NCBI GenBank assembly: GCA_002686365.1
Contig: NZBZ01000018.1
Coordinates: 32,286 to 96,285 of the forward strand
Origin: a bacterium
Lineage (GTDB): Bacteria; Patescibacteriota; Minisyncoccia; UBA6257; GWB1-50-10
Direction: 5' to 3'
Length of the DNA: 64,000 bases
Translations under genes and position numbers: made by a program
The notes under the pieces: model-generated
What the model was told of the DNA's origin: nothing
Seen by the model: only the letters and a program-made list of their open reading frames with translations
Databases searched by the model: none
Part shown: positions 7,142 through 59,299 of the stretch, one piece after another
Position numbering within the stretch: position 1 is the first letter of the stretch
Layout of the letters: each line of letters begins with the position of its first letter

Positions 7142-7283
7142 AACGAGAACAAGGATATAGAATTAATGATGAAGAATCAAGAGTGTGGTGCATAAAAAAC
7201 TGCCCGATGAGACATCGGACAGTTTAAAATTCCGTTTGCATACGTACTGTAAATTTTTGAATTGGAATGCGCTTCGCTTCGCT

Positions 7284-8330
7284 TTACTGTTCTATTGCGC
7301 TTGCCCTTATATCTGCCGGCACAGGCACTCCTTCTTGGAGTCCGATTAATTTTAGGTATGGTAATGGAATTTCTATTGGGGCTGAGCTTTCCTCATCTTC
7401 ACTTAATTCCGCAAAAAGATTTATTGCAAATGAGATGCCGAGATCAAAACCTATGCCTGAAGGTATAAGTGAATTGTCTTTATATGCGTACAAAACTTCA
7501 GTTAAGATAGTGTTTCCCTGTTCGCCTTCCGCTGGTAGCAGTTCTTGTTTGACGTGATGAAGTCGTACTGGATTTTGACCTATCACCACTTTCGTCATCA
7601 TCTTTATTCCGCTTTCACCAAAATCTGTTGTGCTGTCAATACTCTGTATCGTGGTCTCTCCACTTTGTTCGGTGGTTAGACTTCCAATATCCTCCATTAG
7701 CACCTCCCCCCTTATCGTTCTTTGTATAGTGACCACTGTTGCCTTCTCTCCGTTTATTATCCCCTCAGATGCTTCTGTAAATTGGGTTATATTTTGAACA
7801 TTACTCGGAGGATAAAATAATGATTCTATATTCTGTAGTGCAATGTAAGGAGCGGGCATGAGTAGAAATGATTTTGATTTCGCTGCTTTCACTGCTTGTC
7901 CTCCTTCCTGTATTACAAATAGTTCCTGTTCCGTAACATATATTTCTCCTGTTACTTGCGGTTCTCCCTGTAGTGCTAGCTCTGGATTAAACACATTTAT
8001 ATTGTCTCTGTCTTCTATCGTATGCATCTCCATATCAGCATGGAATACATCTGGCCACGCTTCCTTGTGGCGTTTTGCTACCTCCTGAATCAATTCTAGG
8101 GGGTCTTTGGGCAACCCTACTGTTTTTGGCTCTTCTTTTGATTCTCCACTTCCTACCTGTATGCTTTTTTCTGTTTGCGCATTTTCTTGTGCACTCGTAC
8201 TGCTGTCGTTTCTTGAAATAAGCTGCTGTTCAATGAACCCAGCTCCTACTCCCACAGCTAGTCCTATAATTACTGATATAAGTACTGCCACTACTACTCC
8301 GCCTTCATTTTTTTCTTCTGAATATATCAT
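7284..8330 (-). CDS. Hypothetical membrane-anchored/secreted protein
   Basis: An N-terminal TM/signal segment is present; no other family was recognised. Confidence 0.4.
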   Translation of the reverse strand: MIYSEEKNEGGVVVAVLISVIIGLAVGVGAGFIEQQLISRNDSSTSAQENAQTEKSIQVGSGESKEEPKTVGLPKDPLELIQEVAKRHKEAWPDVFHADMEMHTIEDRDNINVFNPELALQGEPQVTGEIYVTEQELFVIQEGGQAVKAAKSKSFLLMPAPYIALQNIESLFYPPSNVQNITQFTEASEGIINGEKATVVTIQRTIRGEVLMEDIGSLTTEQSGETTIQSIDSTTDFGESGIKMMTKVVIGQNPVRLHHVKQELLPAEGEQGNTILTEVLYAYKDNSLIPSGIGFDLGISFAINLFAELSEDEESSAPIEIPLPYLKLIGLQEGVPVPADIRASAIEQ

Positions 8331-8381
8331 ATTGCCATTATAACATTTTAAAGAATCTCCCCCACAGGTTTCTGTTAGGGG

Positions 8382-10103
8382 TCATGAGTTCTCCAATTTT
8401 CGAAGCTTTTTCTGGATGCGCTCCTCCTGCCCACGGCGGGCAAAGTCATAGTTGCCGAGGTTTACCATGATGCGCTCCGCTATCATGGGATAGGCCTTTT
8501 CTACGAGGCGAAACTTCTGCTGTTCTATAGAACGGTAGTCTGGATGCCCTTCTGGGATGGTACGAAGCTCCATTTTCCAAAATATCTGCCTTAGGTTCTC
8601 CCACTGCATAAAGCGAAGGCGGTGCGCAAGGGTTACTGCGTACTGGGCAAGATCAGGATCATGGCGCGCAATTTTTTCGTACACCTCTTGGGCCGGCTCT
8701 ATGGCACCCTTATACTCTTCTTCCAATCCAGCCTCCTTTATTTCTTCTGGAATATCATATCCATGATGCGTAGAGAAGTTTTGTCTTTGCTGAGTAAGCA
8801 TTCTATGCCTATGGAGATCACGCCAAGCGCCGATATTTACGATTGTCTCAAATCTCATATATGTATTTTCAAGCGCTCTCCCCACCTTCTGCCATCTAAC
8901 AGTGCGTCCCTCAAGGTATTTGTCGAGAATGTTTTTCTTTTCCTCTTCTGTCATCTTTCTAATACGTCGGAGAAGTTCTTTCCATCCTCTGTGATTGTTT
9001 GGCGCACTATAAAGAATTCCTGCGATAATCTTATTCTCTCCCTCAAGATCGTGCTCAAGAAGCCGCACCTTAGTTTGGCGATCGCTTGAGACTGTTCCCT
9101 TTTCTTTGAAAACCTCTTCAACTGCTGGCGCAAGACGCCTGCCCTTGCCTGCAAGATATTCCTGATATGAATCTACTGCTTCTTTCTTGTCCTCGTCTTT
9201 TAATCTTCGCAAAAAGGATGGAGTAACTTTGTAAAGCTCCTCTAAAGCCTCATTCGCTGCCCATCGGATTTCTCCAAGTGAGTGCTTTCCCGACCTGCTT
9301 ATCATGTACTCAAATGCCTGCCCATTTCCAAAAAAGGCAACTTGCGAGAGGGTTGAGGCTGGAAGGAGTCCGCGTACTGTATCAAATGCCTTCTTCTCAA
9401 TTACCGACTTCTCTTCTTTTGGAAACTTCTTTGTAAGATATTCGCTTAGCTTTGGAATAAAGTCTGTGTAGGCGTCAAAGAGTCCGTCCATTGCATTCTC
9501 ATATTCAGTTTTCAGTCTTAGCTTTTTTAGCGTTGGATCTGTGTAGTACAAGTACTTCCCTCCTACTTTTTTGGAGTAGTTTACATAGCGTGTGGATTTC
9601 TCAATTGGAGCAAGTCCAATACGCTGGTCTTCAAAGTGTTTTATTGCAACTTGTGAAATGCCCTGAAAGATAAGATGAGATCCTGCCATCTGCGCGATAG
9701 AATCATCTCCATATTCTGCAAGCCACTTTACATAGAAGGAGCGGGCCCTTGGGTTTGCAAAAAGTTCTGATACTGGATGTTTATGCAGAAAGTCGATGAA
9801 CTCTCTTAATCCTTCTCCGTATTTCTGCTTCTCTTTCCAAACTTCTTCCGTATCTTTTGGTTCTCGCTCTGCTTCTATAAAGGGGGCTATATACTCCTTC
9901 AAAAATATGGGACGTAGATCACCCTTTACCCGGCTTGTTCTTGAGCATAGCGCGCCAATAAGCTCCGGAGGGAGCAGTATTGGGGCGTACACCGACTTAT
10001 CACAGTTTGTAAAAAAGGGCTCTAGATACTTCTTCTCTTCTGCCTGATACTTGTTTTTTAGAAAAATTGGAGCGAATTCTTCAAGATTTTCCTTTGATTC
10101 CAT
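8382..10103 (-). CDS. Long ThyX-like protein (FAD-dependent thymidylate synthase-like C-terminal domain; N-terminal ~350 aa unknown)
   Basis: The C-terminal region carries an RHR motif followed by QQRQNF, then ..LAQYAVTLAHRLRF..W..LRQIFWKMELRT. This resembles the ThyX RHR...SQRY...ARFVLP...LRHFFxLR...AQWEIR order. Long (~530 aa) ThyX forms are known in other bacteria. Confidence 0.4.
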   Translation of the reverse strand: MESKENLEEFAPIFLKNKYQAEEKKYLEPFFTNCDKSVYAPILLPPELIGALCSRTSRVKGDLRPIFLKEYIAPFIEAEREPKDTEEVWKEKQKYGEGLREFIDFLHKHPVSELFANPRARSFYVKWLAEYGDDSIAQMAGSHLIFQGISQVAIKHFEDQRIGLAPIEKSTRYVNYSKKVGGKYLYYTDPTLKKLRLKTEYENAMDGLFDAYTDFIPKLSEYLTKKFPKEEKSVIEKKAFDTVRGLLPASTLSQVAFFGNGQAFEYMISRSGKHSLGEIRWAANEALEELYKVTPSFLRRLKDEDKKEAVDSYQEYLAGKGRRLAPAVEEVFKEKGTVSSDRQTKVRLLEHDLEGENKIIAGILYSAPNNHRGWKELLRRIRKMTEEEKKNILDKYLEGRTVRWQKVGRALENTYMRFETIVNIGAWRDLHRHRMLTQQRQNFSTHHGYDIPEEIKEAGLEEEYKGAIEPAQEVYEKIARHDPDLAQYAVTLAHRLRFMQWENLRQIFWKMELRTIPEGHPDYRSIEQQKFRLVEKAYPMIAERIMVNLGNYDFARRGQEERIQKKLRKLENS

Positions 10104-10177
10104 TGTGGCTATCCTACACCTCCTTCCACGCGTCCTGCAAGCTTTTTTTAGGATTAGCGCTTTCTAAAAATATCTTC

Positions 10178-10588
10178 TCAATTGCTTTGAACATATGAAT
10201 CTTCTCTGGCATGACCTTGTTTGAATACAAGAATCGCTACTGTGATTGAGCCCAGTATGTCCATTACAAAATCAAGAAGCGTATCATCTCTGGTTCCCAT
10301 AAATCCCTCCCAAACAGCATAATCAATAGTCCACTCAAAGAACTCCCATGTTATTCCGATAAAGGCTGTTCCTCCTACGATAATTATTAATGTTCCAAGC
10401 CATGATGTTCTCTCTATATCTTTCTTAAGAAGTATTCTTATAAACCAAGCTGCAAAAAATCCTCCAATAAAGTGCATGGGGATATCCAGTATTGGGAAAC
10501 CTGAAAGCGTATTAAATACTGCAAATATCCAAAACAAGGCAAAAAGAATGATTCCTCCTATAATTGGATATCGTATTGATGTATTCAT
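10178..10588 (-). CDS. Integral membrane protein (4 TM), likely start at MNTSIRYPI
   Basis: The hydrophobic profile supports a membrane protein. The upstream part of the ORF overlaps the next gene, so the internal Met was chosen as start. Confidence 0.4.
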   Translation of the reverse strand: MNTSIRYPIIGGIILFALFWIFAVFNTLSGFPILDIPMHFIGGFFAAWFIRILLKKDIERTSWLGTLIIIVGGTAFIGITWEFFEWTIDYAVWEGFMGTRDDTLLDFVMDILGSITVAILVFKQGHAREDSYVQSN

Positions 10589-10598
10589 GTGATAAGAT

Positions 10599-10811
10599 CT
10601 AAGATTTAAGAACTTTTTTCTTCCTATTTTTTTTCTCGCTGAAATAAAAGATATACGCAGCCTCAAGAAGAGCAACAGTATTTACCACCAGAATAATAAT
10701 AAACCACCACCTATGTCCTTTTTTTGATGCCTTCCAAAGAGCATATCCCTTCCACGGAAGGGTCCAAATTAGCAAAAGAAGAAATAGCGGTTCTTGATAG
10801 ATATCGAGCAT
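10599..10811 (-). CDS. Small membrane protein, PLDc_N-like (cardiolipin synthase N-terminal domain family)
   Basis: Two TM helices and LLLLIWTLPWKGYALWK are typical of PLDc_N. Confidence 0.35.
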   Translation of the reverse strand: MLDIYQEPLFLLLLIWTLPWKGYALWKASKKGHRWWFIIILVVNTVALLEAAYIFYFSEKKNRKKKVLKS

Positions 10812-10828
10812 GAGTTAAGTCTTGTGAT

Positions 10829-11053
10829 TTAAGAAGTTTCTATTTTAATTATTTTATTTTTTGAGGTTTGTCCGCTTACTATCATTATGTTTATTTGCGG
10901 AACCTGAAAGTGTTTTGCAAGTTTTCTAATTACTGCCAGATTTGCCTTTCCTTTCTCTGGTTGCTCATGTACTGCTATCTCAAATTCTGATTCACTTATT
11001 TGCTTTAAGTACTCTTTTTTTGCTTTTGGCTTTACTTTAACTGATATGTTCAT
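10829..11053 (-). CDS. DUF167 (YggU-like) protein
   Basis: The motifs ISVKVKPKAKK...IAVHEQPEKGKANLAVIRKLAKHF match the DUF167 signature (GKAN). Confidence 0.55.
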   Translation of the reverse strand: MNISVKVKPKAKKEYLKQISESEFEIAVHEQPEKGKANLAVIRKLAKHFQVPQINIMIVSGQTSKNKIIKIETS

Positions 11054-12723
11054 TTCTTCTTTGTGCCTGTGCCTTCTCTGCGTTTTATTCCCGCTTTTAC
11101 AAGCTCTCTAAATAATGGATGCGGATTTAGGGGGCGAGATTTGAATTCCGGGTGAAACTGACTCCCCACAAAAAAGGGGTGCTTCTCACGAGGAAGCTCT
11201 GCGATTTCCATTAATCTTCTGTCTGGTGACGCGCCGGAAAAGATAAGTCCGGCACGTTCAATCCTTTTTATATATTTTGGATTTACTTCGTATCGGTGAC
11301 GGTGCCGTTCAGAGATGCGCGGTTTCCCATATGCATCTCCTGCAATTGTTCCCTTTTGAAGACGCGCTGGATAGGCGCCAAGACGCATAGTCCCTCCATA
11401 GTTTTTCTTTGAAAGAAGCTCTTTCTGCTCCGGCAGAACATCGATAACCGGATTTGGAGTTTTTGCGTTTATCTCTGTGGTGTGAGCTTCTTTTATCTTT
11501 GCAACGTTTCTTGCGAATTCCACTACCATCATCTGCATTCCATAACAAAGCCCCAGATATGGAATGTTATGTTCTCTGCAGTACTTTACTGCCTGAATCT
11601 TTCCCTCTATTCCCCTTGAACCAAACCCTCCGGGTACGATAATGCCGTCAAGCTTTTCCAATTTTTTCAAACTTGTTCGGTATCCTTTATTTTTTTTATC
11701 AAATTCTTCTGCATCGAGCCATTCAATTATTGGCTTTCTCTTCTCCTTGTAGGCAGCGTGCTTAATTGATTCGATGACAGATATATAAGAATCAGTAAGA
11801 ACAAAGTCTCCTGTTGCAAAATATTTTCCTACAATGCCAATCCGCACCTCCTTTGTTGATCGTCGTATATTTCGTACAAATGCGCGCCACTCACCATCCT
11901 TTTTTTTCTTTCTTGTTCGGATGTTCAGTTTTTCCATTAATACGTCTCCGAGGCGTTCTTTCTCAAAATTTATTGGTACTTCGTAAATACTTTCAACGTT
12001 TGGTGCTGAAATGACGCTTTTTCCATCAATACTGCAGTGGAATGCAATTTTCTCTTTCCTCTTTTTATCAAGCGCAACATCTGCTCGTGCAATGATGACG
12101 TCTGGATGAATTCCTGCAGAGTGAAGGCTGCGTACTGCGTGTTGTGTTGGTTTTGTTTTTAATTCTCCCTCGCTTCCCTGGGTTGGAAGATAACTTACCA
12201 AAACGAGTAACACATTTTCCGGATGCTTAAACTTAAGCATTCGTACAGCCTCCAAAAAAAGGATGTTCTCATACTCTCCTACTGTTCCTCCAATTTCTGT
12301 TATAACCACATCTGCGTGATCTTTTTTTGATGCGCGTTCAATTCTACCGATCACCTCAAGCGGAATGTATGGTACAACACTTACGAATTTTCCTTTATAC
12401 TCGAGATTTCGTTCCTTTTGGATTACATCTAGATAGATGCTCCCAGTTGTCATATAGTTCCTTGCATCAAAATCTCGATCGAGAAAGCGTTCGTAATTTC
12501 CCATGTCCTGATCGCATTCGGTTCCGTCATCCATCACAAACACCTCGCCATGCTCCGTGGGATTCATGGTGCCTGCATCAACGTTTACATATGGATCTAT
12601 TTTTATCGCAGAGACTCCGAGTCCATTCATTTGGAGAATCTTTCCTATTGAGGAGCTTGCTACTCCTTTTCCGACTCCTGACATAACTCCTCCTACGACA
12701 AATATGTATTTTGTATCTGCCAT
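11050..12723 (-). CDS. pyrG: CTP synthase
   Basis: The N-terminal VVGGVMSGVGKG, the GATase domain (GLCYGMQ) and the length all match. Confidence 0.95.
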   Translation of the reverse strand: MADTKYIFVVGGVMSGVGKGVASSSIGKILQMNGLGVSAIKIDPYVNVDAGTMNPTEHGEVFVMDDGTECDQDMGNYERFLDRDFDARNYMTTGSIYLDVIQKERNLEYKGKFVSVVPYIPLEVIGRIERASKKDHADVVITEIGGTVGEYENILFLEAVRMLKFKHPENVLLVLVSYLPTQGSEGELKTKPTQHAVRSLHSAGIHPDVIIARADVALDKKRKEKIAFHCSIDGKSVISAPNVESIYEVPINFEKERLGDVLMEKLNIRTRKKKKDGEWRAFVRNIRRSTKEVRIGIVGKYFATGDFVLTDSYISVIESIKHAAYKEKRKPIIEWLDAEEFDKKNKGYRTSLKKLEKLDGIIVPGGFGSRGIEGKIQAVKYCREHNIPYLGLCYGMQMMVVEFARNVAKIKEAHTTEINAKTPNPVIDVLPEQKELLSKKNYGGTMRLGAYPARLQKGTIAGDAYGKPRISERHRHRYEVNPKYIKRIERAGLIFSGASPDRRLMEIAELPREKHPFFVGSQFHPEFKSRPLNPHPLFRELVKAGIKRREGTGTKKK

Positions 12724-12780
12724 ATCGTTTTCTATTGTAACACCGAGACCATTGATTTCCTAGTGATGCCGTAGTAACTT

Positions 12781-14355
12781 ATGTATATACCTATGTCTAC
12801 ACTTTCTCAACCAGTAGAAGGACTTTTGGAATCTTATCGGCTCTATCTTGAGAAAAAACGGCCTCGAGAAGAAGAGCCAAAGATTGAGGTTGATGAGATT
12901 GCCTCGAAAATTGCGGCCTTCTATGAAAAGTTCCGAAATCTTATTGATTATCAGGAAAGTCACCTTTTGCGGAAAAATGTCATTGGAAGGGCACTTCGAA
13001 GGCGGATTTTTTTGAAAGACATCAGCGGTGAGGATATTGCAGAACCTCTTATTAAAGAAATTATCCGCTCAGGATATCTTGGTAACAACACTATTCCGGA
13101 AAGTAAAATTTCCGAAGTTCAGAGGATTATTGATAATCTTCTCTTTTTTCTTGAGTATGGACGGTCGCTTTCAACATCTGAAGGGCGGGAGTTTTCCGAA
13201 TGGATTGTTGGCGTAACAGTTTGCGCGATTGAAGAAACTCTTGCCACACCAGAGAAAGACCGTTTGCTTGCGACCCTTATGTTCCAGACCCTGCGCCGGG
13301 ATCTTACAATTGCGGGCGCGAATGTTACAGATGACGTTAAAGATGTGCTTCTCTTTATTGCAATACAGAAGTCACTTTTTCGAGTCGATAATGATCAGCT
13401 TCACCATCGACTCTTACGCCTTATGTTTCCGGAGTGGGAAAATTCGAATACAGAAAACTCATCTTCTGTAGCAGGAAGTCTTTTTGTTACGCATAAAAAT
13501 GTTTCTGACTATCTTCGTCACCCCCTACTTCCTTCATTTCTAAAGCTCTGCAATCATTACAATACGGTATTTCAAACTCTTGGCGATCTTGTGTTTTCAA
13601 GTAAAGGATTTGATGATCTTGAGAAGGACGTTGAGGAGGTATACCAAGAACGATACAGGAAACAGCGCGGACGCCTTTTCCGAATGGCCTTTCTCAGCAT
13701 AATATCATTCTTCCTTTCGAAAATTCTTGTTGCTGTTGCGATCGAGGTTCCGATTGACTTGTATATCGCTAATCACTTTTCTTTGTTTCATACACTCTTA
13801 AACATTGCCCTTCCTCCTTTTCTCATGCTTCTTATTGTTGCCTCCATCCGGCTTCCCTCTAGGAAGAACCTCCATCTTGTACAAAGAGCGGTTCGATCTA
13901 TTGTGTTTGAGGGAGAACGAGAGGCTTACACTGTTCAGACCCCCAAGAAGAAGAGCTGGTTTATCTGGTTTCTTGTTCACTTTATCTACCTTGTTGTGTT
14001 TGTTGTTACTATCCGAATTATCGCAGCGTTTCTTCTCTCGCTCGGATTTAGCATTGCAAATGTTGTAGTCTTTCTCCTATTTACATCTCTTGTTACTGCT
14101 GTTGGCGTGAAGATTTATAATAGATCAAAAGACATCAGCCTAGAGAAAGAGCGGCCTAGGTTTTTCAACTTCCTTCTTGATCTTTTTACCATGCCGCTTG
14201 TAACAATTGGAAAGTGGCTCATTGCCGGATTTCGAAGGTTCAACATATTTGTTATTTTTACAAATGTGTTTATCGAGTTCCCCTTCCAGCTCATTGTTGA
14301 GTTTTTCGAAAATCTTCATGAGTTTGTTCGGAACAAGAAAGAAGAGATACAGTAA
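12781..14355 (+). CDS. Hypothetical protein with C-terminal multi-TM region
   Basis: This is the only long + strand ORF in this part of the window and is followed by a strong terminator; no family was recognised. Confidence 0.5.
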   Translation: MYIPMSTLSQPVEGLLESYRLYLEKKRPREEEPKIEVDEIASKIAAFYEKFRNLIDYQESHLLRKNVIGRALRRRIFLKDISGEDIAEPLIKEIIRSGYLGNNTIPESKISEVQRIIDNLLFFLEYGRSLSTSEGREFSEWIVGVTVCAIEETLATPEKDRLLATLMFQTLRRDLTIAGANVTDDVKDVLLFIAIQKSLFRVDNDQLHHRLLRLMFPEWENSNTENSSSVAGSLFVTHKNVSDYLRHPLLPSFLKLCNHYNTVFQTLGDLVFSSKGFDDLEKDVEEVYQERYRKQRGRLFRMAFLSIISFFLSKILVAVAIEVPIDLYIANHFSLFHTLLNIALPPFLMLLIVASIRLPSRKNLHLVQRAVRSIVFEGEREAYTVQTPKKKSWFIWFLVHFIYLVVFVVTIRIIAAFLLSLGFSIANVVVFLLFTSLVTAVGVKIYNRSKDISLEKERPRFFNFLLDLFTMPLVTIGKWLIAGFRRFNIFVIFTNVFIEFPFQLIVEFFENLHEFVRNKKEEIQ

Positions 14356-22159: not shown

Positions 22160-22687
22160 GTGATATCCTTTTGCCCAGATGAGTGCCCTTATGGAGTGGT
22201 TATCCATTGGGCATTCTCCCGGAAATCAGGATCTCGCAACGTGCGGATTTACCGCACATTCAGAGAGGTAGCCTGCATGCCTACTGCGTACACGAATCTG
22301 GCACGCGAACTTCGGAAGTGCCGAGATGGCTCCGTGAGTCAGGACAATGATCCAGATGCCCGCGAGCTGCTTAGGATTACCGCAGCGCTGATCCAGGGTC
22401 TTCTGGGCCTGACCGATGTCCAGCTGAGGTCCTCGCTTTCGAGGGGACTCTTCGGACTTCCCCTTGACCGTTTCGGTAGGTGCGGTAAGCGGACCATGGA
22501 TGCCGTCAACGCGTTTGCGGACGGATGTCTCTCAGACAGTGCGCGAGACGAGTTCCTTCAGCTCATAGGTTCGTCGAGTACTGAGAGAACTCAAGGGCTC
22601 AACCAGATCTGGAAGATCATTGCTTGCTTAGATCGCGTTGCCGAGCCGACCAGGTCATCCGGCGATCTCGCCGCTGCTTCGGCCTGA
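22160..22687 (+). CDS. Hypothetical protein in GC-rich island (true start possibly the Met at 22277, MPTAYTNLAREL..)
   Basis: ORF only. Confidence 0.3.
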   Translation: MISFCPDECPYGVVIHWAFSRKSGSRNVRIYRTFREVACMPTAYTNLARELRKCRDGSVSQDNDPDARELLRITAALIQGLLGLTDVQLRSSLSRGLFGLPLDRFGRCGKRTMDAVNAFADGCLSDSARDEFLQLIGSSSTERTQGLNQIWKIIACLDRVAEPTRSSGDLAAASA

Positions 22688-22747: not shown

Positions 22748-23800
22748 TTAAGACTCTATCTTTTCCCACGGGAGATCTGGTTTGCCAAAGTGGCCATATG
22801 CAGCTGTCTGCCTATAAATTGGAGCTTGGAGATTCAGGCGTTCAATAATTGCCTTGGGACGAAAGTCGTACTTGTCCCTTATCTCATTTGCAATACTTTC
22901 CCCATTTTCATTTAAGGCCTCAATCATGACCGGCTCTGCCCGGCCTATAGCGTAGGCTACTGACATAAGACACTTCTTTGCAGCTCCGCGCGCTACAAGA
23001 TTTTTCGCAGCAAAGCGGCACATGTAGGCTGCGGAACGGTCTACTTTTGTAGGATCCTTCCCAGAAAAGCATCCTCCGCCATGCGGTATAAGTCCGCCAT
23101 AGGTATCTACCATAATCTTTCTTCCTGTCAGACCTGCGTCTGCCTCAAATCCGCCTTGGACAAACTTGCCTGTTGGATTTATTAGAACTTCGATTTTTGA
23201 CACGTCTTCTACAAGCGGAGCAATAAGTTTTTCAATAAGAGTTTTTCGAATTTCCTCCTGAGAAACTTCTTCATCATGCTGACAACTTACTAAAATGGTT
23301 TTGATTTCGCCGTCTTCTATAGTGACCTGCGCCTTACCATCCGGACCAAGCCATGGAATCTCTCCCTTCTTTCTTAAGTTCTCAAGTCCATATGTCAGCT
23401 TGTGAACAAGCACAATGCCTTTTGGCAAAAACTCTTCTGTTTCATCTGTTGCATACCCATACATAATACCCTGATCCCCTGCTCCGCCTGTATCCACGCC
23501 TTGAGCAATATCCGGAGATTGCTGAACTATTTGCGTAATAATTTTTAGGTCTTCTTTATATCCGATGTCTGTGTATATATCTCGCGCTAGTTTCTCAAAA
23601 TCTATTTTCGCGCTTGTTGTAATCTCTCCCCCTAGAACAAGAAGTCCGTGGGACCCAAGCACTTCTGCTCCGGCTCGTGTTTTAGGATCGACTTTTAAAC
23701 ACTCATCTAAGATGGCGTCTGAAATCTGGTCACAGACCTTATCTGGATGGCCAGAAGTAACTGATTCGACTGTGTAGACTTTTGGATTGGATAAAATCAT
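22748..23800 (-). CDS. metK: S-adenosylmethionine synthetase
   Basis: GHPDKVCDQISDA, GAGDQG and GGGCFSGKD motifs are all present. Confidence 0.95.
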   Translation of the reverse strand: MILSNPKVYTVESVTSGHPDKVCDQISDAILDECLKVDPKTRAGAEVLGSHGLLVLGGEITTSAKIDFEKLARDIYTDIGYKEDLKIITQIVQQSPDIAQGVDTGGAGDQGIMYGYATDETEEFLPKGIVLVHKLTYGLENLRKKGEIPWLGPDGKAQVTIEDGEIKTILVSCQHDEEVSQEEIRKTLIEKLIAPLVEDVSKIEVLINPTGKFVQGGFEADAGLTGRKIMVDTYGGLIPHGGGCFSGKDPTKVDRSAAYMCRFAAKNLVARGAAKKCLMSVAYAIGRAEPVMIEALNENGESIANEIRDKYDFRPKAIIERLNLQAPIYRQTAAYGHFGKPDLPWEKIES

Positions 23801-23904: not shown

Positions 23905-24025
23905 GAAGATTCGACTTAGTTATCTTTCCCATTTGGGACTGGATTTGGCACCTTTCTTACAGTGTCACCTGTAAGCGGTTGCCGGCGGATCATTGGGCCA
24001 GTTCCCTTACCGCACTCTTAATAAT
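23905..24025 (-). promoter_or_regulatory. SAM-I (S-box) riboswitch in the metK leader
   Basis: The minus-strand RNA reads UAUUAAGAGUGCGGUAAGGGAACUGGCCCAAUGAUCCGCCGGCAACC GCUUACAGGUGACACUGUAAG AAAGGUGCCAAAUCCAGUCCCAAAUGGGAAAGAUAACUAAG. This matches the SAM-I consensus (AAGAG.GG.AGGGA.CUGGCCC.AUGA..C.GGCAACC ... AAGGUGC.AAAUCC.G ... GAAAGAU.A) and keeps the P1/P3/P4 pairings. Confidence 0.85.
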
Positions 24026-24176
24026 TATTTAATTGTATTTTTATTTTATTATTTATTTTTATAGAAGTCAATATACTTTTGTGGATATTCTTATGTTGAC
24101 AGCAGTTAAGTTAGAGGAGTAGTGTGATTATAGGATTTCGACATGTGCGTTGGGGAGATCCTTGGAGGACACTCCT

Positions 24177-31932: not shown

Positions 31933-32927
31933 TCTTCCGGCACTACGTTTTCAGGCTTGCCCTTTATAAATCCTTTGATGTTTCCAATTGTAATGTCTAG
32001 AATCCTTTCATGCGCCTCTACGGAGTTGAATGCATCATGCGGAGTGATTAAGACATTATCCATGTGTATCAAAATGTGATCCTGAAGCATGGTTTCCGCG
32101 TCCTCCCCCTTTGCCGGCTTGTAATGCTTTTCTTTTAGCGCAACCTCTTCTTCGAGCACGTCGAGTCCTGCTCCTGCAATTTTCTTTTTCTTTAACGCCT
32201 CTACCAAAGCCTCAGTTTCTACAAGCCCGCCTCTGGCTGCATTTATTAGATATGCGGTGGGCTTCATGAGTTTTATGTTCTTTTTATTTATTAAGTGATT
32301 CGTATGTTTATTTAGCGGGCAGTGAAGTGTTACAAAGTCAGACTTTTTAAGAAGCGCCTCAAGCGATACATACTTATATCCCATCTTTTTTGCATATGCC
32401 GCATCTTTTACAACATCAAAGGCAATAATATTCATGTCGAATCCTCTTGCAATGCGAACTACCTCTTTTCCGATTCGTCCTGTTCCTACAACTCCGATAG
32501 TCTTTCCCTTAAGATCAATTCCTCGAAGTCCCATAAATTCAAATCTGCTTGTTTCTTTTAGCCTATCAATTCCCCAGTATATTTTTCTAGAAAGATTTAA
32601 AATCAGCCCGAATGTAAATTCTGCCACTGTATTGTCTCCATATCCCGGAACATAAGAAGCTGTAATCCCTCTTTTTTTGCACTCCTTAAGATCAATATGA
32701 TCAAAGCCAGTTGAGCGTGTCGTGACGAATTTCAGATTTGGCAGCTTATCAAGCATTGCCTTGTCCATTTTTGAATCCACAAATACAGAAATTACTTCTG
32801 CGTCTTTTGCATCTTTGGCGTTTTTTAGTGTAAGCGGACTCTTAACAAACTTCAGTTCATGAGAAGAGAAGTTCTTTTTTAAATGGGCTTCTTCCCAGCC
32901 CTCAAAGCTAAAGAATGAGATGTTCAT
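31929..32927 (-). CDS. D-isomer-specific 2-hydroxyacid dehydrogenase family (D-lactate/phosphoglycerate dehydrogenase-like)
   Basis: NAD-binding GVVGTGRIGKEV and the catalytic domain order are present. Confidence 0.8.
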   Translation of the reverse strand: MNISFFSFEGWEEAHLKKNFSSHELKFVKSPLTLKNAKDAKDAEVISVFVDSKMDKAMLDKLPNLKFVTTRSTGFDHIDLKECKKRGITASYVPGYGDNTVAEFTFGLILNLSRKIYWGIDRLKETSRFEFMGLRGIDLKGKTIGVVGTGRIGKEVVRIARGFDMNIIAFDVVKDAAYAKKMGYKYVSLEALLKKSDFVTLHCPLNKHTNHLINKKNIKLMKPTAYLINAARGGLVETEALVEALKKKKIAGAGLDVLEEEVALKEKHYKPAKGEDAETMLQDHILIHMDNVLITPHDAFNSVEAHERILDITIGNIKGFIKGKPENVVPEE

Positions 32928-36235: not shown

Positions 36236-37996
36236 ATGAATGATATACGATCCTGTCAAAACTGTAAGCAGGATTTTTCTTTATCTCAGGACGAGAAGAC
36301 GTTTTATATTAAGATAAAAGTTCCAGAGCCCACCTTCTGTCCTGCATGCAGATTCCAGCGGCGTGTTGCTGTTCGTAACGAACGCACTCTTTATAAGCGA
36401 AAGTGCGGGCTTTGCGGAAACTTAATGCTTGCAATGTACGGGCCAGAGAAGCCATTCCCTGTGTACTGCAAAGACTGCTGGTGGTCTGATAAGTGGGATC
36501 CAACTGCCTATGAGCTTGCATATGACTGGGAAAAGCCCTTTTTCGTACAGTTCCGTTCTCTTTTAGAAAAAGTGCCTCGCCCTAATCTCATTACGCAGAA
36601 TGCCCCAAACAGCGACTACTCAAACTACGTTGTTGATGTAAAAAACTGCTATCTCTGCTTTGGCACCATTGAATCTGAAGACTGCATGTATGGAGCTCCG
36701 TACGAATCAAAGCACTGCGTAGATACCTATCTTGCCAGAGAGTGCGAGTACTGCTACGAATGCCTTGATTGCGAGAAGCTTTCAAGCTCTCTTTTTGCGC
36801 AGGATTCCTCTGCATCACTTAATCTCCTGCACTGCTTTGACTGTAAGAACTGCCATGACTGCATTGGATGCGTGGGATTGAGAAATAAAAAATATCATAT
36901 ATACAATAAGGAGTATCAAAAAGAAGAGTTTGAGAAGATGCAAAATGAGATTTTCTCACGCGGAAGAGAGGGGTTTGAGGAGGTGCGCGTGGAATTTGAA
37001 AAGCTCAAGCTTGCTATTCCCCATCGATTTGCCACAACACTAAAATGCGAGCGCGTGAGCGGCGACCATATTGTCCAGTCAAAAAATGCGGAGCACTCGT
37101 TTGATATAAAAAAGCTGGAAGATGCAACGCACTGTATTCGCATGATTGACGGGCGGGACGTACATGATACGAACTACTGTGAGTTTATGGAACTTACCTA
37201 CGACTACCTTGGATTTTTGCGGGACAGCAATATTCGATTTTCAAATACGTGCGGAGAGTGTGAAGATGTTCAGTATTCTGATTTCTGTCAGGGCTCTTCT
37301 CATCTTTTTGGGTGTATTGGGCTTCGTAAGAAGGAGCACTGCATTTTTAATAAAGAATACGAAAAGCAGGAGTATGAAGAAATGGTTTTGAAAATAGAGG
37401 AGCAGATGAACAGTATTCCGTACAAGGATGCGAAGGGGCGGGAGTATAGATATGGGGAGTTTTTCCCAATTGAGCTGTCTCCTTTGGCTTACAATGAATC
37501 TGTGGCTCAGGAGTTCTTTCCTCTTTCAAAAGAAGAGGCAGTAAGTCAAGGATATTCATGGCGGGACCCGGATGATCAGGGGTATGATGTTGCTATGCAG
37601 ACTTCTCAAATTCCTAATACTATCGAGGAAACAGGCAGTGATATTTTGAATCAGGTAATTGGCTGTGAGCACGCGGGCACATGTAATGAAAAGTGCACGA
37701 CTGCATTTAAAATTACCTCTATGGAACTTCAGTTTTATCAAAGGATGAGGATCCCTATTCCTACCCTCTGCCCGAACTGCAGGCACTATGCTCGGCTTGG
37801 GAGACGTACTCCGTTTCAGGTGTGGAGACGAAAGTGCATGTGCGGAGGAAAAGCATCAGATGGAGGCATGTATTCAAACACGAGCGCTCACTCACACAAT
37901 GAAGAACACTGTGCAAATGAATTCGATACTTCATATGCTCCAGAACGTGACGAGGTTGTCTACTGTGAAGAATGCTACAATGCAGAAATTGTCTGA
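36236..37996 (+). CDS. 586-aa cysteine-rich protein with many CxxC pairs (multiple zinc-ribbon-like modules); unknown function
   Basis: Regularly spaced CxxC..CxxC pairs run throughout, and the C-terminus reads ..VVYCEECYNAEIV. Confidence 0.55.
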   Translation: MNDIRSCQNCKQDFSLSQDEKTFYIKIKVPEPTFCPACRFQRRVAVRNERTLYKRKCGLCGNLMLAMYGPEKPFPVYCKDCWWSDKWDPTAYELAYDWEKPFFVQFRSLLEKVPRPNLITQNAPNSDYSNYVVDVKNCYLCFGTIESEDCMYGAPYESKHCVDTYLARECEYCYECLDCEKLSSSLFAQDSSASLNLLHCFDCKNCHDCIGCVGLRNKKYHIYNKEYQKEEFEKMQNEIFSRGREGFEEVRVEFEKLKLAIPHRFATTLKCERVSGDHIVQSKNAEHSFDIKKLEDATHCIRMIDGRDVHDTNYCEFMELTYDYLGFLRDSNIRFSNTCGECEDVQYSDFCQGSSHLFGCIGLRKKEHCIFNKEYEKQEYEEMVLKIEEQMNSIPYKDAKGREYRYGEFFPIELSPLAYNESVAQEFFPLSKEEAVSQGYSWRDPDDQGYDVAMQTSQIPNTIEETGSDILNQVIGCEHAGTCNEKCTTAFKITSMELQFYQRMRIPIPTLCPNCRHYARLGRRTPFQVWRRKCMCGGKASDGGMYSNTSAHSHNEEHCANEFDTSYAPERDEVVYCEECYNAEIV

Positions 37997-38075
37997 GGAG
38001 ATTGCCTGCCCCGTGGGAGCGGAGCGACTCTACGGGGTGTACTGCGAGGAGTGCTACAATAGCGAGATTGTATAA
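37997..38075 (+). pseudogene. GC-rich duplicated copy of the 3' end of gene 36236..37996 (..EEIACPVGAERLYGVYCEECYNSEIV*), in the +1 frame; remnant of a homologous gene tail
   Basis: The peptide ..YCEECYN(A/S)EIV* is encoded twice in tandem. The second copy differs mostly at synonymous third positions and is visibly GC-richer. Confidence 0.5.
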
Positions 38076-38145
38076 AGATAAACCAAAACCCGCCCTGAGC
38101 AATGTCGAAGGGCGGGCTTTTGGTTTGAGCTCAAATCAAAATTTA

Positions 38146-38403
38146 CTATGCTGGATTTACTGGTTCTGCTGGCGCTTCTCCTCCTTTCTTTTCTCCGCCG
38201 CAGCAGTTCCTACTACATACGCCCTTGTGCGTTACAGCTTCAAAGACTGCTGCAAGACCAATTACGATGTAGATAATTCTGGAGATAATGTTGGCCTGCC
38301 CGCCAAATAATTCCCCAATGTCCCACCCAATAACTCCAATAAGCAGCAAGTTTATACCTCCAATAATGAGTAGGATAAACGTGACAATGTGTAATGCCTT
38401 CAT
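38146..38403 (-). CDS. DUF378 family small membrane protein
   Basis: MKALHIVTFILLIIGGINLLLIGV...ISRIIYIVIGLAAV matches the DUF378 pattern. Confidence 0.6.
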   Translation of the reverse strand: MKALHIVTFILLIIGGINLLLIGVIGWDIGELFGGQANIISRIIYIVIGLAAVFEAVTHKGVCSRNCCGGEKKGGEAPAEPVNPA

Positions 38404-38652: not shown

Positions 38653-40263
38653 TTACGAGTCTCTTTGGCGCGACTCCTCTCTCCATGTCATGTATTCCGA
38701 GCTTTGCATGAGCTCAGGAAGATACTTCGTCCTGCACCAGTGGAGTAGCCACCCTCCTTGTCCTGTTTCCAGAGAGATCTCTTCGTGAGCCTCAGGCTGC
38801 ACCTCCTGAAACTCTCTTATCTCTCCTTCCCAGAGCACGAGGGCGTTCGTTCCAGGATTGTAGGAGGATATTTCCTCGATATGCGTAAGGAGGACTCCTT
38901 CTTTTTGAAGCTCTGCCTCGCGCCCTCTCGCTTCCCCCTCACTTTCGAACCACTCGACCTCAGACTTTGGACATTCCGCCAGTATTCCTGCGTCTATCCA
39001 GTGCCCGTTTAGCGCCTCGTTTATCTTATCTGTGACGAAGCTGTCGCTGTTGGCCAAGAGGCTTTCTTTTGTGAAGACCTTGCGATCCCATAGCCACTTG
39101 ATGACTAGAGTTGCGAGAAAGTGCTCGAGTGTTCGAGTTGTTGGGTTCGCATAGACGCTCTTGATGAGGCGTGCCCGCAAACGCAGGAAGTGCTCAAATC
39201 GCGAAACGTCTGTAACTACGGCCTTGTCCTCTATCACTTGCACAGAATCCCAGCATCCGCACACGCAAGGCGTGGTGCTTATCATGTGCTCAATGCTGTG
39301 GTCGTAGCCTACACTTACGTTCTGACAGCTGCAGTACGCGACTGCGTCTCCGCCCACATAGGCGAATCGATCAGCAAGATTAAGTATCTCGCCGAGTATC
39401 CCTTGCCCCTGGATCGTGTCAATCACACGTTCGGCAGAGATATTGAGCAACTGCAGTCTTGCAGCATGCTGCCAAATGAGAGGGACACAGGTTTCTTCCT
39501 CATCCAGCTCCTCTCCGACTGCCATCTTGGTCGTGTCTCCGCCAGCTGGAGTTGTAATGTCGTGGAGCACAGCCGCTGCCTCAAGGACCCTCATGTCCTC
39601 CTCAGAGAGGCCGCTGTTCGCTCCGATGAGCACTGCAATTCCAACCACAGAAAGCGTGTGTACCAGCCGTGTGTGAGAGAAGAGCATTCTACTCTCTGTC
39701 TCTTCCCTCTCCATCCTCACCATAACGCCGGCAAGAAATCCTAGTTGCCGGATTTCTCTTAAGCGCCATCCATCAAAGAGGGTTAGTAGCTGCTCTGTAA
39801 GTCCCCCTCGGTGGAAGATGCATCCGGTTCCTGTAAGAGGGAAGGTTGGAACGATCTGACTTGGATCTTCCGTTTCTATGAGCGCATGCGACTGACGCAG
39901 ATGCCTTCTCAGTACTCCCGGAAGCTCTTCTGTCCAAGGCGGCTCATCGCCTTTATTCTCTTCTCTGTTCCTGAGGTAGGCGTTTTCGACAATGATGATT
40001 TGCAGTATACTACTTGTTTTTTCTGCTTTCTCATCATTAACGATTTTCCGCCACACTTCACAAGAAATCGCGTCTATCCAGTCTTTCATAGAACGCGCTT
40101 CTTGTGCTGTAATCTGCGGTATAAAGGTTATATCTTCGATTCGTACGCATTTCTCAAAGCCTTGTGCCATATACATGCCATATTCTCCTTGAAAAGTGCT
40201 AAAAACGAGCCTTTCTATAGGCATTTTAGGTATACCAGTCCTCCTTTCTTTCGTCAAAGTCAC
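38653..40263 (-). CDS. HD-domain phosphohydrolase-superfamily protein (536 aa) with a large uncharacterised C-terminal region; GC-rich
   Basis: H..H...LHD..D pattern (FSHTRLVHTLSV ... AAAVLHDITTPAGGD); no specific subfamily recognised. Confidence 0.5.
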   Translation of the reverse strand: MTLTKERRTGIPKMPIERLVFSTFQGEYGMYMAQGFEKCVRIEDITFIPQITAQEARSMKDWIDAISCEVWRKIVNDEKAEKTSSILQIIIVENAYLRNREENKGDEPPWTEELPGVLRRHLRQSHALIETEDPSQIVPTFPLTGTGCIFHRGGLTEQLLTLFDGWRLREIRQLGFLAGVMVRMEREETESRMLFSHTRLVHTLSVVGIAVLIGANSGLSEEDMRVLEAAAVLHDITTPAGGDTTKMAVGEELDEEETCVPLIWQHAARLQLLNISAERVIDTIQGQGILGEILNLADRFAYVGGDAVAYCSCQNVSVGYDHSIEHMISTTPCVCGCWDSVQVIEDKAVVTDVSRFEHFLRLRARLIKSVYANPTTRTLEHFLATLVIKWLWDRKVFTKESLLANSDSFVTDKINEALNGHWIDAGILAECPKSEVEWFESEGEARGREAELQKEGVLLTHIEEISSYNPGTNALVLWEGEIREFQEVQPEAHEEISLETGQGGWLLHWCRTKYLPELMQSSEYMTWREESRQRDS

Positions 40264-40333
40264 TGCCTTTTTTCTTTTGCTATTCTAATATTCTTGAGAA
40301 TTTGAGAATAGCTGGGATTAGAATTTCTTTGCA

Positions 40334-40363
40334 ACAAAAAAGGAGCGCGTGGATGTGCGCCCC
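40334..40363 (-). terminator. Intrinsic terminator T1 (GGGGCGCACAUCCACGCGCUCC + U6 on minus) after paralog P1
   Basis: This is one of three near-identical copies at 40334, 40767 and 41108. Confidence 0.7.
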
Positions 40364-40402
40364 AATGGATTCGATGGTTGAAAAGGTGATGGTCGTCTGT
40401 AG

Positions 40403-40663
40403 TCATCTGGAAGTCGTGCGTTGGGCTCGGTATCCCCTCGGAATGGTGGCGAAAATACCGAAAACTCCCACCACAAACAACCCACCAGAAATGCTCAGCT
40501 TCCACTTATGCGATGCTATTACCTCACTCAACTCTTGCCCGCCATGAGTCATCAGATACAGCAGGAAGAATAGTGAAAATAAGGCGAGGATCAAAGAAGC
40601 CACGTTCGCTAATCTCAGCGTTCTCCCTGATACTCCAGCCCGCAGGAGTGCATTATGCAGCAC
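40403..40663 (-). CDS. Small membrane protein paralog P1 (MLHNALLRAGVSGRTLR..., 2 TM)
   Basis: It is paralogous to the ORFs at 40821 and 41179; these share an N-terminal (M/V)L(H/L)N.L.R.GVS...TLR motif followed by TM helices. Confidence 0.5.
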   Translation of the reverse strand: MLHNALLRAGVSGRTLRLANVASLILALFSLFFLLYLMTHGGQELSEVIASHKWKLSISGGLFVVGVFGIFATIPRGYRAQRTTSR

Positions 40664-40746: not shown

Positions 40747-40766
40747 TTTATTTTTAACTTTTTTCA

Positions 40767-40796
40767 ACAAAAAAGGGGCGCATGGATGTGCGCCCC
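40767..40796 (-). terminator. Intrinsic terminator T2 after paralog P2
   Basis: Near-identical to T1 and T3. Confidence 0.7.
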
Positions 40797-40820
40797 AATG
40801 GATTGACGAGTATCTGCTTC

Positions 40821-41050
40821 TCACTTTCTGGGCTTGAGGGTGCGTTTTGCGCCTAAAAGTCCCACCACAATCACTGTTCCCGAGACAATCAGTGTCCAAG
40901 GGAACAATATCTCATCTGGCCCTGGGCCGAATGCTGCTCTAGGCAGCGCAAAGGCTAGTGCCGCAAAGGCACAAATGAGACAGATCGTATTTGCTCGCGT
41001 CAGTACTTTCTCTGAGGCTCTCCTTCGCCAGAATATGTTGAGCAACACGC
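40821..41050 (-). CDS. Small membrane protein paralog P2 (likely GTG start: VLLNIFWRRRASEKVLTRAN...)
   Basis: Paralogy with P1 and P3. The ORF-track start at 41111 lies inside terminator T3, so an internal start is preferred. Confidence 0.4.
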
Positions 41051-41107
41051 GACGTCTCCTGTCATCCTGTTGGAGGTCTCTGCTGACCTCGCTCTGTCTT
41101 ATATTAT

Positions 41108-41137
41108 ACAAAAAAGGAGCGCGTGGATGTGCGCCCC
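41108..41137 (-). terminator. Intrinsic terminator T3 after paralog P3
   Basis: Near-identical to T1 and T2. Confidence 0.7.
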
Positions 41138-41178
41138 AATGAATTTGACGATCAGGAAGGCTGCTGTCATCGAGGAGG

Positions 41179-41604
41179 TCATGCGAGATTCACGCTTGTC
41201 TTCCAAGTCGTGGGCACGAGACCAATAACTCCCGCGCACATCAACCTCCAAACAATGAAGAACGCCTTGTCGAATTCCCCTTTCGTTTGTGGGTCTATTA
41301 ATGACGTCAATATCACGCAGAGCATCGCAATAGAGGCGCCAAAGGACAGGATGAAGAAAATCGTGCCCAGCGCTATCATGAGTTTCGAGGTCGTAAGGAT
41401 GGCGCCAATAGTCCCTACCACAATCAATGCCCCGAAGAAACTCTGTAAGCAGTGGAGCAGTATGGCGTATTGCCCCTGTTGGTCACCACTCACCAACATC
41501 AGAAATGGGACTATTGATACCCCAGTAGCGATTATGAAGGTCAAGGTCATTGACCTTAGCGTCCCTCTAGACACTCCTCGCCGCAGGAGAATTTTGTGCA
41601 GCAT
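41179..41604 (-). CDS. Membrane protein paralog P3 (MLHKILLRRGVSRGTLR..., 4 TM); the ORF-track N-terminal extension is probably not translated
   Basis: Paralogy with P1 and P2. Confidence 0.45.
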   Translation of the reverse strand: MLHKILLRRGVSRGTLRSMTLTFIIATGVSIVPFLMLVSGDQQGQYAILLHCLQSFFGALIVVGTIGAILTTSKLMIALGTIFFILSFGASIAMLCVILTSLIDPQTKGEFDKAFFIVWRLMCAGVIGLVPTTWKTSVNLA

Positions 41605-41654
41605 GCGATCACCCCCTCTCTTCTCTTGTGGGCTTGAAGATTGAGACGGATCAC

Positions 41655-41873
41655 CTAAGTTAATGAGCCACCTAATCTTGGTTTGTGAGACACGTAGATC
41701 ATTATAGATCCAAGTGCCCCCACCAAGAACAATCCTACCATGGCATACGCCAATACAGGTGGCATCACTGGTAGTTCTGCTGCCTCTTGGCCAGAAGAGC
41801 ATATGATACTCGATATATATCCTGCCGGCACCGCGCCCATGGTGAAGAAGGTCCTAAAAAGTATTCTTCGCAT
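41655..41873 (-). CDS. Small membrane protein (2 TM) downstream of a copy of the conserved promoter
   Basis: ORF plus promoter motif copy at 41920..41962. Confidence 0.35.
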   Translation of the reverse strand: MRRILFRTFFTMGAVPAGYISSIICSSGQEAAELPVMPPVLAYAMVGLFLVGALGSIMIYVSHKPRLGGSLT

Positions 41874-49811: not shown

Positions 49812-50264
49812 TTATGTTTCGCCTTGGTCGGCCAGATTTCGGAGTCTTTCCCTCTCTTCTTGTGCCAACCATCTTACGACGCGGCACGCGAGAAGAAGTG
49901 CGATCGCAGCAACTGCTCCTGCCACCATTCCGTAGATTCTGTAGGGTCCGAAGATTCCACCTGCCATGATGGCGCCTATTGTGCCGTAAAGCAGAGCGAA
50001 GACAATGATTCCGTTCCGCTTGCGCTTGCGCTTCCTTTCTGCATCGAGAAAAGCGAGCCCTCTAGAAGCGTTTGCGTATTGCTCTCTCTCGAGCAAGAAC
50101 CAGAGAAGTGCTCCGATGAATGCCGAGACAATCACCGTGATAGATAGGTTCATCGCCCATGCTGTAAATAGAGAGCTTCCGTTAAGTGTGGCTACGAACA
50201 TCATGCCACCGCCTATGAATCCCCCTAGCGCTCCTGTTGCGGCTCCCTTTAGCGCTGCACCCAT
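49812..50264 (-). CDS. GC-rich hypothetical membrane protein (G/A-rich TM helices)
   Basis: ORF with TM helices, inside a GC-rich island. Confidence 0.4.
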   Translation of the reverse strand: MGAALKGAATGALGGFIGGGMMFVATLNGSSLFTAWAMNLSITVIVSAFIGALLWFLLEREQYANASRGLAFLDAERKRKRKRNGIIVFALLYGTIGAIMAGGIFGPYRIYGMVAGAVAAIALLLACRVVRWLAQEERERLRNLADQGET

Positions 50265-58153: not shown

Positions 58154-59182
58154 TTAGACAATCTCTACGCCGCGTTCCCCCTGGACGATCTCTCCTATAA
58201 CTATGGGTGTTTCATTATGTATTTGGAGCAGTTCGAGGGCTTGGTCCTGGTCTTCTCTTTCTATGGCCAGCACCATGCCGATTCCCATGTTGAAGACGCG
58301 GAACATTTCCCTATCCTCAACGCCTCCCGCCTTCTGGATGTGCGCGAAGATAGGAAGTGCGTCCCAGGTTTCTCTGCGGATCACGGCACGGCATGCCTCA
58401 GGCAGGATGCGTCGGATGTTGTCCGGAAGTCCTCCGCCTGTGATGTGGGCGATTCCCCGTATCACGACCTTCCCCTGAAGCATCTGAATGGCTTTCAAGT
58501 AAGATCTGTGAGGCTTGGAGAGTTCTTCGCCCACTGAAATTCCTAGACCAGGAATTTCACTTCCCACAGACAGGCCCTCTATCTCGAAGATTACCTTCCG
58601 TGCTAGGGAGTAGCCGTTCGTGTGGATACCGACTGATGGGAAGCCAATGACGACGTTGCCTGGTTGTATGCCTTCCCCTGTGATGAGGCAAGAGCGTCCC
58701 ACCATACCTATCATGCAGCCAACGAGGTCGTATGCGTCCCCTTGGTATGTATCGGGCATCTGGGCAGTTTCGCCGCCTATGATTGGAATCGTTAAGCATC
58801 CAATCTCTCTACACGTATCCGCCATTCCTCTTGTCAGGCCCTCGGCCATCTCGACGGATAGCGTTCCTGACCCCACGTAGTCTAAGAAGAAGAGCGGGCT
58901 TGCCCCTTGGCAGATGGTGTCGTTTCCACAGTGCCTAACGATGTCTCCTCCGACAGTGTGATGTGGGGCTACTTTCGCTTTCGTTCCTACCCCATCAATG
59001 GTCGCGGTAAGTACCTGATCTGGAAATTGCTCAGGAACGAAGAGCGCTGCGAATGTTCCGGTCTTACTCACTACCCCGGGTCCGTAGGTTGACTCTAGGA
59101 GAGGTCTCATTCTTTCAAGCGCCACATCTGCTTCCCCTATGTCAACTCCGGCGTCAGCGTACGTCAGCGGATCCCTTCTCAT
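58154..59182 (-). CDS. purM: Phosphoribosylformylglycinamidine cyclo-ligase (AIR synthetase); GC-rich
   Basis: LTYADAGVDI..., the GG.TAQMP motif and ~340 aa in length. The start was set to MRRDPLTY, which has GGAAGGA upstream. Confidence 0.8.
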   Translation of the reverse strand: MRRDPLTYADAGVDIGEADVALERMRPLLESTYGPGVVSKTGTFAALFVPEQFPDQVLTATIDGVGTKAKVAPHHTVGGDIVRHCGNDTICQGASPLFFLDYVGSGTLSVEMAEGLTRGMADTCREIGCLTIPIIGGETAQMPDTYQGDAYDLVGCMIGMVGRSCLITGEGIQPGNVVIGFPSVGIHTNGYSLARKVIFEIEGLSVGSEIPGLGISVGEELSKPHRSYLKAIQMLQGKVVIRGIAHITGGGLPDNIRRILPEACRAVIRRETWDALPIFAHIQKAGGVEDREMFRVFNMGIGMVLAIEREDQDQALELLQIHNETPIVIGEIVQGERGVEIV

Positions 59183-59299
59183 TTCTCGTCCTTCCGAGTT
59201 CACTTCCCCAGATTGGCCTGGAGATCTATCGCAACTATACTTGTCCTTTTTCCTTTTTTCAACTTTTTGTATTTTGTGTGGATAACTTTTGAGTTATGG

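Follow-up and report, generated by a model that had tools for sequence, protein, structure and literature searches.

In this work we describe a short second tail lying directly downstream of the gene for a 586-aa multi-zinc protein in contig NZBZ01000018.1, which belongs to a bacterium of the Patescibacteriota (assembly GCA_002686365.1); the whole stretch of DNA analysed, 64,000 nucleotides from positions 32,286 to 96,285 of the contig, is referred to here as the window, and coordinates are given within it unless a locus is named. The window forms part of a 105-kb metagenome scaffold from Tara Oceans, and its gene content and best matches assign it to the Patescibacteria, here an uncultured marine member. 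The second tail is very probably a 3'-end fragment of another gene of the same family, whatever the origin of that gene, and we favour, with moderate confidence, the explanation that it is what a deletion left of a neighbouring tandem paralog. It is a genuine and ordinary gene relic, one more example of a feature of an already known kind, and of little importance in itself: a footprint of gene loss, of a type that can mimic recoding signals or the repeats of diversity-generating retroelements (DGR). The features that carry this reading are the following:

36236 to 37996, plus strand: intact gene of the 586-aa multi-zinc protein, from a large Patescibacteria family that has no name, recognised as an open reading frame (ORF) with homologues; it terminates in ...RDEVVYCEECYNAEIV and a stop codon, within the longer C-terminal stretch ...APERDEVVYCEECYNAEIV and stop.
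37958 to 37996, plus strand: functional tail (copy 1), VYCEECYNAEIV and stop, identified from the sequence and with a repeat finder.
38022 to 38075, plus strand: remnant of the 3' end of another family gene, ERLYGVYCEECYNSEIV and stop, now non-coding, identified by tblastn, the repeat, the synonymous pattern and GC content at third codon positions (GC3).
37998 to 38021, plus strand: doubtful 5' part of the relic, EEIACPVG, either degraded family sequence (EE.CP) or junction DNA, as only EE..CP fits.

The relic is read in the +1 frame at positions 37998-38075, starting one base past the stop codon of the zinc gene, as EEIACPVGAERLYGVYCEECYNSEIV followed by a stop. Two signals delimit it: the repeat finder pairs positions 37958-37999 with 38037-38078 (42 nt, 74% identity, spacing of 79 nt), and a tblastn search of the 64-kb window with the last 29 aa of the gene recovers the second copy at 38022-38072, with 13 of 17 residues identical (E=1.6e-5) and no further matches in the window beyond the gene's own two zinc modules. 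A preliminary description of this DNA, made from its letters, had proposed that the last 26 codons of the gene were duplicated. The second tail is indeed real, shifted to the +1 frame and GC-richer (0.57 versus 0.40 in the first copy), with mostly synonymous differences; clear homology is, however, limited to the last 13 of those 26 codons (17 by BLAST), and the first ~9-13 codons of the relic share with the family nothing but EE..CP and (A)ER. The EEIACPVG segment has EE..CP in common with the family pattern H.H..EE.CPNEF and was left unaligned by BLAST. Moreover, the Cys-to-Cys distance in the relic is 11 residues, six short of the 17 that are invariant in the family; its cysteines number three, against the four of a zinc site; and the part of its +1 frame lying further upstream shows no family similarity. 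In its present state the relic appears to be non-functional and neutral, forming part of the 3' untranslated region (UTR) of the surviving gene.

The aligned ends indicate that two genes are represented, and not one copied end. Over the 39 nt encoding VYCEECYN(A/S)EIV and the stop codon, 10 bases differ between both tails and 12 of the 13 codons retain their meaning; in 100,000 random placements of ten substitutions, none matched this number of kept codons (P<1e-5). Such conservation of codon meaning despite the nucleotide changes implies that purifying selection acted on both tails while they diverged, each as the end of a working gene. In addition, the relic is identical to the neighbouring tail at 29 of 39 nt, whereas it matches the tails of unrelated family members at up to 32 of 39. 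Being no nearer to its neighbour than to unrelated tails, it corresponds to another family member and not to a copy of this gene. To judge from this codon pattern, the relic experienced purifying selection in the past and was once the end of a working gene. Its tail also fits the near-invariant C-terminus of the family and stops exactly where the family stops.

The host protein belongs to a family which we consider a more interesting object than the relic itself. A word-indexed search returned 6,401 significant homologues, the best non-self match being 62% identical over the full length, and an exhaustive profile search recovered 5,196 clusters (at 50% identity) at E<=1e-3, including 2,227 at E<=1e-30. 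Homologues were aligned from residue 1-5 through the last residue, the alignment spanning residues 1-586, and therefore both the start and the stop of the 586-aa gene are taken as correct. All named matches correspond to metagenome-assembled genomes (MAGs) of Patescibacteria, where they are annotated as 'hypothetical protein', and as far as seen the family is confined to this group. Its C-terminus is near-invariant, CPNEFETSYAP(E/D)RPEIVYCExCYxxE(V/I)x followed by the stop, which explains that a relic of 13 codons is still recognisable. Two zinc modules flank the protein:

36236 to 36490, plus strand: N-terminal double zinc module, residues ~1-85, with weak matches to zf_Tbcl (residues 6-43) and zf_Tbcl_2 (50-83).
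37643 to 37996, plus strand: C-terminal double zinc module, residues ~470-586, ending in C.NEF.TSYAPER.E.VYCE.CY..E.V and stop.

These terminal modules are homologous to each other (BLASTP, 27% identity, E=3e-13), and the protein therefore contains an ancient duplication within itself; a weak similarity (E=5e-4) also links the two Cys-rich segments at its centre. In agreement with the preliminary description, which had regarded the family as unrecognised, no curated model in Pfam or NCBIfam corresponds to it. The searches of these databases gave only sub-threshold treble-clef or CxxC-x17-CxxC matches, located at the N-terminus, and zf_Tbcl (PF13451), zf_Tbcl_2 (PF23477) and TIGR04272 all remained under their curated cut-offs (21.4 versus 27, 16.6 versus 24, and 16.2 versus 36 bits, respectively); among 37 family members, only 5 and 3 attained E<=0.01 with such models. 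The likeness to these three models consists in the CxxC-x17-CxxC spacing of the terminal modules, whereas the architecture of ~590 aa with two Cys-rich central repeats differs and has no model. An AlphaFold2 (AF2) model of the 586-aa protein reached a predicted local distance difference test (pLDDT) of 77 and a predicted template modelling score (pTM) of 0.77, and neither a fold match to this model nor a profile match to the sequences was found in the PDB. With ~5,200 clusters of ~590-aa proteins, the family represents a sizeable piece of uncharacterised biology of the candidate phyla radiation (CPR).

Members of this family are habitually found in tandem. Among 82 related loci, 47 contain 2-6 family copies inside 4-6 kb, and the 86 adjacent same-strand pairs are separated by a median spacer of ~50 nt, many of them by -4 to +10 nt or with an ATGA overlap; the tightly packed arrays, of up to six diverged paralogs, are probably co-translated. 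The closest relative of the zinc gene (P0002, the one 62% identical) stands at the head of a tandem array comprising at least five paralogs joined by ATGA overlaps, and further close relatives occur in 1, 1 and 2 copies. Copy number changes quickly from one genome to another and varies at orthologous loci: L082 contains at least five tandem copies with ATGA start/stop overlaps (6001-13767) and L088 a single one (6001-7764), with upstream genes common to both, namely SecDF, sigma-70/HARE-HTH, DUF8128 and an ATPase of the type IV secretion system (T4SS) type. The match lengths given for arrays are inflated, since in tblastn the C-terminus of a paralog also matches the N-terminus of the paralog after it.

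Debris of family genes is likewise present in other genomes. Two unrelated Patescibacteria MAGs contain an orphan tail after a full-length gene, at positions 3736-3903 of L065, where it lies between two intact paralogs, and at 5647-5778 of L075; both are found 40-90 nt past the stop, in another frame, and read ...RPEIV(Y/C)CE.CY... and stop, with a degraded 5' part rich in Gly, Ala and Arg. In L075, 23 of 51 nt differ from the preceding tail and 14 of 17 codons are kept (P<1e-5), and the composition of this relic matches that of its host. Including the relic of the window, the pattern of intact terminal 13-17 codons with a degraded, GC-rich 5' part was observed in 3 of about 150 family genes. 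Other fragments comprise a 63-aa C-terminal piece ahead of an intact gene (L066), a 100-aa C-terminal piece (L057) and a 34-aa N-terminal piece (L037). Finally, one member of a five-copy array (L071, 7150-7353) displays a ~107-nt internal out-of-frame deletion between CPNCRHY and CPNEFETSY, which is either an incipient pseudogene or the product of a sequencing error.

With the integration of these findings, we propose that a second family gene would once have been located directly downstream of the 586-aa gene, in head-to-tail orientation, as a resident paralog. A single deletion may then have started a few bases from the stop of the first gene and extended to ~20-26 codons ahead of that of the second, leaving the first gene untouched together with the last ~17-26 codons, the stop codon and the terminator of the lost paralog; this old terminator would now serve the surviving gene, and what remains of the coding sequence would evolve neutrally. 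The following points are consistent with this sequence of events. Since paralogs are packed stop-to-start, a deletion sparing the first gene must begin within a few bases of its stop, as is seen here. The only strong hairpin terminator sits past the relic, and not past the stop of the intact gene. Furthermore, because the tandem arrays vary in copy number, deletion of an adjacent paralog offers a simpler route to the present arrangement than foreign recombination. The relic resembles those left by the birth-and-death turnover of tandem paralogs, in which a short fragment adjoins an intact member and fragments, deleted copies and variable copy number are found; it differs from them in lying 1 nt from a stop codon, in its perfect 13-codon tail, and in a composition that is odd for the genome.

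Some observations weigh against deletion of a resident paralog. The GC3 of the relic is 0.74 (20 of 27 codons), versus 0.30 for the first copy, and lies above every tail of 57 family genes with overall GC3 of 0.36-0.50 (tail mean 0.42, standard deviation 0.13, maximum 0.65); given the GC3 of the host gene, its binomial probability is ~0.003. The window has a GC content of 0.43 and most of its genes a GC3 of 0.31-0.43 (0.31-0.46 for the host genes set against the relic), and when tested, on only 27 codons, the relic did not match the composition of the host genome. As a long-resident paralog would be expected to be host-like, these values speak against the favoured explanation, and the high GC3 favours a compositionally foreign source. 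In addition, the nearest relative, at just 62% protein identity, is too distant to show an intact second copy, and the 5' half of the relic is far more degraded than its last 13 codons, a pattern not expected if decay was neutral and uniform; it could be accounted for by a lost paralog from a divergent subfamily, like the 550-aa member of the L082 array. Within the window, ORFs with GC3 of 0.52-0.60 are also present at 2957-5671, 22160-22687, 41123-41644, 49812-50264 and 58154-59203. The genome is compositionally patchy, which weakens arguments from composition for the foreign origin of one short segment.

An alternative that we regard as unlikely, yet one that deserves serious consideration, is that the tail is the scar of horizontal transfer or illegitimate recombination, either by joining DNA of a GC-richer Patescibacterium, beginning within the 3' end of that organism's copy of the gene, just past the resident stop or by replacement of the gene body with the old end left behind. 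This was the interpretation of the preliminary description, and the part of it that invoked a different, homologous gene agrees with our results, as the selection signature likewise derives the tails from two genes. Recombination with a donor genome was not established, no donor and no synteny being found. Family tails as GC-rich as the relic do exist; the genes that carry them have a GC3 of 0.54-0.79, and their loci a GC content of 48-57%. The stretch 3' of the relic is itself somewhat GC-richer, with a 536-aa HD-like gene (GC3 0.54) and an ORF of GC3 0.58. On the other hand, the intact GC-rich homologue that this proposal calls for was found neither in the metagenomes of the Joint Genome Institute (JGI) nor in a collection of 5.8 billion proteins; two degenerate DNA patterns searched on metagenome contigs matched 0 and 3 times, and the upstream residues of the relic were absent from every match. 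The DUF378 gene adjoining the relic is host-like (GC3 0.43), the neighbouring genes, those downstream included (DUF378, the HD-like ORFan and others), were never found beside a family gene in the 82 other loci, the composition signal comes from just 27 codons, and the host-like relic of L075 argues that a foreign origin is not general for such relics. In a further and very improbable scenario, orphan tails would not be random debris and would mark a recurrent process in the family, for instance one in which paralogs or incoming homologues exchange the conserved 3' zinc knuckle by gene conversion or by replacement of a cassette-like kind; if so, the family would be a diversifying, conflict-type system and not a housekeeping one.

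The remaining explanations are weaker. That the second tail is functional, as a C-terminus reached by frameshifting, as a 95-aa overlapping gene, as a 31-aa small ORF (ATG at 37980) or as a structured 3' UTR, might be suggested by a +1 frame without interruption over the 110 codons that lead to the relic's stop, by the intact last 13 codons and by the recurrence of the arrangement in three genomes. We nevertheless judge it very unlikely, given that the relative frame is +1 in the window and -1 in L065 and L075, that L075 lacks a start codon in the relic's frame, that the relic holds three cysteines and not the four of a zinc site, that alternative-frame ORFs of 81-112 aa are common here, and that the folds of the three relics are not better than those of shuffled sequences. 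The 95-aa ORF, which the preliminary description had considered a possible overlapping gene, does not stand as one: it is uncalled in the public annotation (gene calls of a 105-kb Tara Oceans scaffold, ERZ2773065, TARA_SAMEA2619974 scaffold_103, inspected over 10 kb on either side) and has no relatives, no protein among the 5.8 billion having even three 5-residue words in common with its last 42 aa. A duplication in the style of an attachment (att) site, with an integrative element bringing a replacement tail to the gene's 3' end and being later imprecisely deleted, is comparably improbable. A working gene accompanied by a displaced C-terminal pseudogene is the anatomy of icd/icdC in E. coli K-12, where prophage e14 attaches (PMC13626634; Hill et al. 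1989 cited there), and there too the fragment derives from the same gene with largely synonymous differences (PMC13626634). In E. coli, however, a 15-kb prophage with its integrase separates the copies, and the crossover took place in an identical core (PMC13626634), whereas here nothing lies between copies, only 1-40 nt separate both tails, the relative frame differs among the three known cases, the gene calls within 10 kb include no integrase or other mobile-element gene, and the copies have no identical core above 9 nt, this being their longest common exact run. A local origin, in which the last ~79-97 nt of the gene were recently duplicated in tandem and then drifted, would fit units that adjoin exactly, are spaced by 79 nt and each start with EE..C; drift would, however, strike all codon positions, and at 26% nucleotide divergence 12 of 13 codons are kept in a copy which is no nearer to its neighbour than to unrelated family tails. 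This candidate is therefore refuted for the last 13 codons by the synonymous pattern, and overall it is given hardly any credence. The same minimal weight is assigned to a DGR template/variable repeat pair or an assembly chimera, which the metagenomic nature of the contig and the presence of a repeat at the gene's 3' end, with its second copy just downstream, might evoke. Against a DGR, which the preliminary description had already rejected from the mostly synonymous differences, the mismatches are not confined to adenine (3 or 4 of 10, depending on the copy taken as template), the repeat is very short (~42 nt), the gene calls over 10 kb to each side include no reverse transcriptase (RVT), and the differences are of a synonymous and not of a diversifying nature. 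Regarding a chimera, no common exact word exceeds 9 nt that could mislead an assembler, the join is at non-homologous positions, and the composition is the same on both sides of the locus in one 105-kb scaffold.

Two further candidates were rejected. Recoding of the stop (TGA as Gly) would leave translation in frame 0 and yield GDCLPRGSG..., which is not the relic, and the family ends exactly at this stop. A GAGGAG motif past the stop as the Shine-Dalgarno (SD) sequence of the lost paralog is unsupported, with SD-like motifs present in only 2 of 42 tight paralog junctions.

The surroundings of the relic contain three additional features:

37788 to 38075, plus strand: 95-aa alternative-frame ORF ending in the relic, not a gene, since it is uncalled publicly, without relatives and without a Pfam match.
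38080 to 38125, strand not assigned: GC-rich hairpin flanked by an A-run and a T-run (inverted repeat I4, 17-nt arms, 82% complementary, 12-nt loop).
38146 to 38403, minus strand: convergent downstream gene of a DUF378 membrane protein, from its ORF and the public annotation.

The hairpin is probably a bidirectional intrinsic terminator common to two genes, the convergent DUF378 gene and the zinc gene, whose 3' UTR includes the relic. It constitutes the dominant stem of the RNA fold, and it is not listed by a simple terminator scan because its loop exceeds 8 nt. The fold signal of the wider region (z of -3.75) stems mainly from this hairpin, and RNA structure in the relic itself was rejected, as the folds of the three relics are no better than shuffles (z = -1.5, -1.1 and +0.9). 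Alternative-frame ORFs of 81 and 112 aa also occur in or around the zinc gene.

Beyond the DUF378 gene, the 536-aa gene (38653-40263, minus strand) shows a weak HD-domain match and a weak dGTPase match (PADLOC, E=0.0013); its only match among the 5.8 billion proteins is itself, so that it is an ORFan, and its GC3 is 0.54, versus ~0.38 for the genome. A 44-nt element follows in three copies (40328-40371, 40761-40804 and 41102-41145; 89-93% identity), which on the minus strand reads as a GC hairpin and then a T-run, in the manner of an intrinsic terminator. One such copy is found immediately downstream of each of three small ORFs resembling membrane proteins (40403-40663, 40821-41111 and 41179-41802, all on the minus strand), in a stretch largely uncalled in the public annotation. 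At a greater distance, an S-adenosylmethionine (SAM) riboswitch (RF00162, 65.7 bits) is located at 23917-24027 on the minus strand, upstream of the minus-strand ORF 22748-23800.

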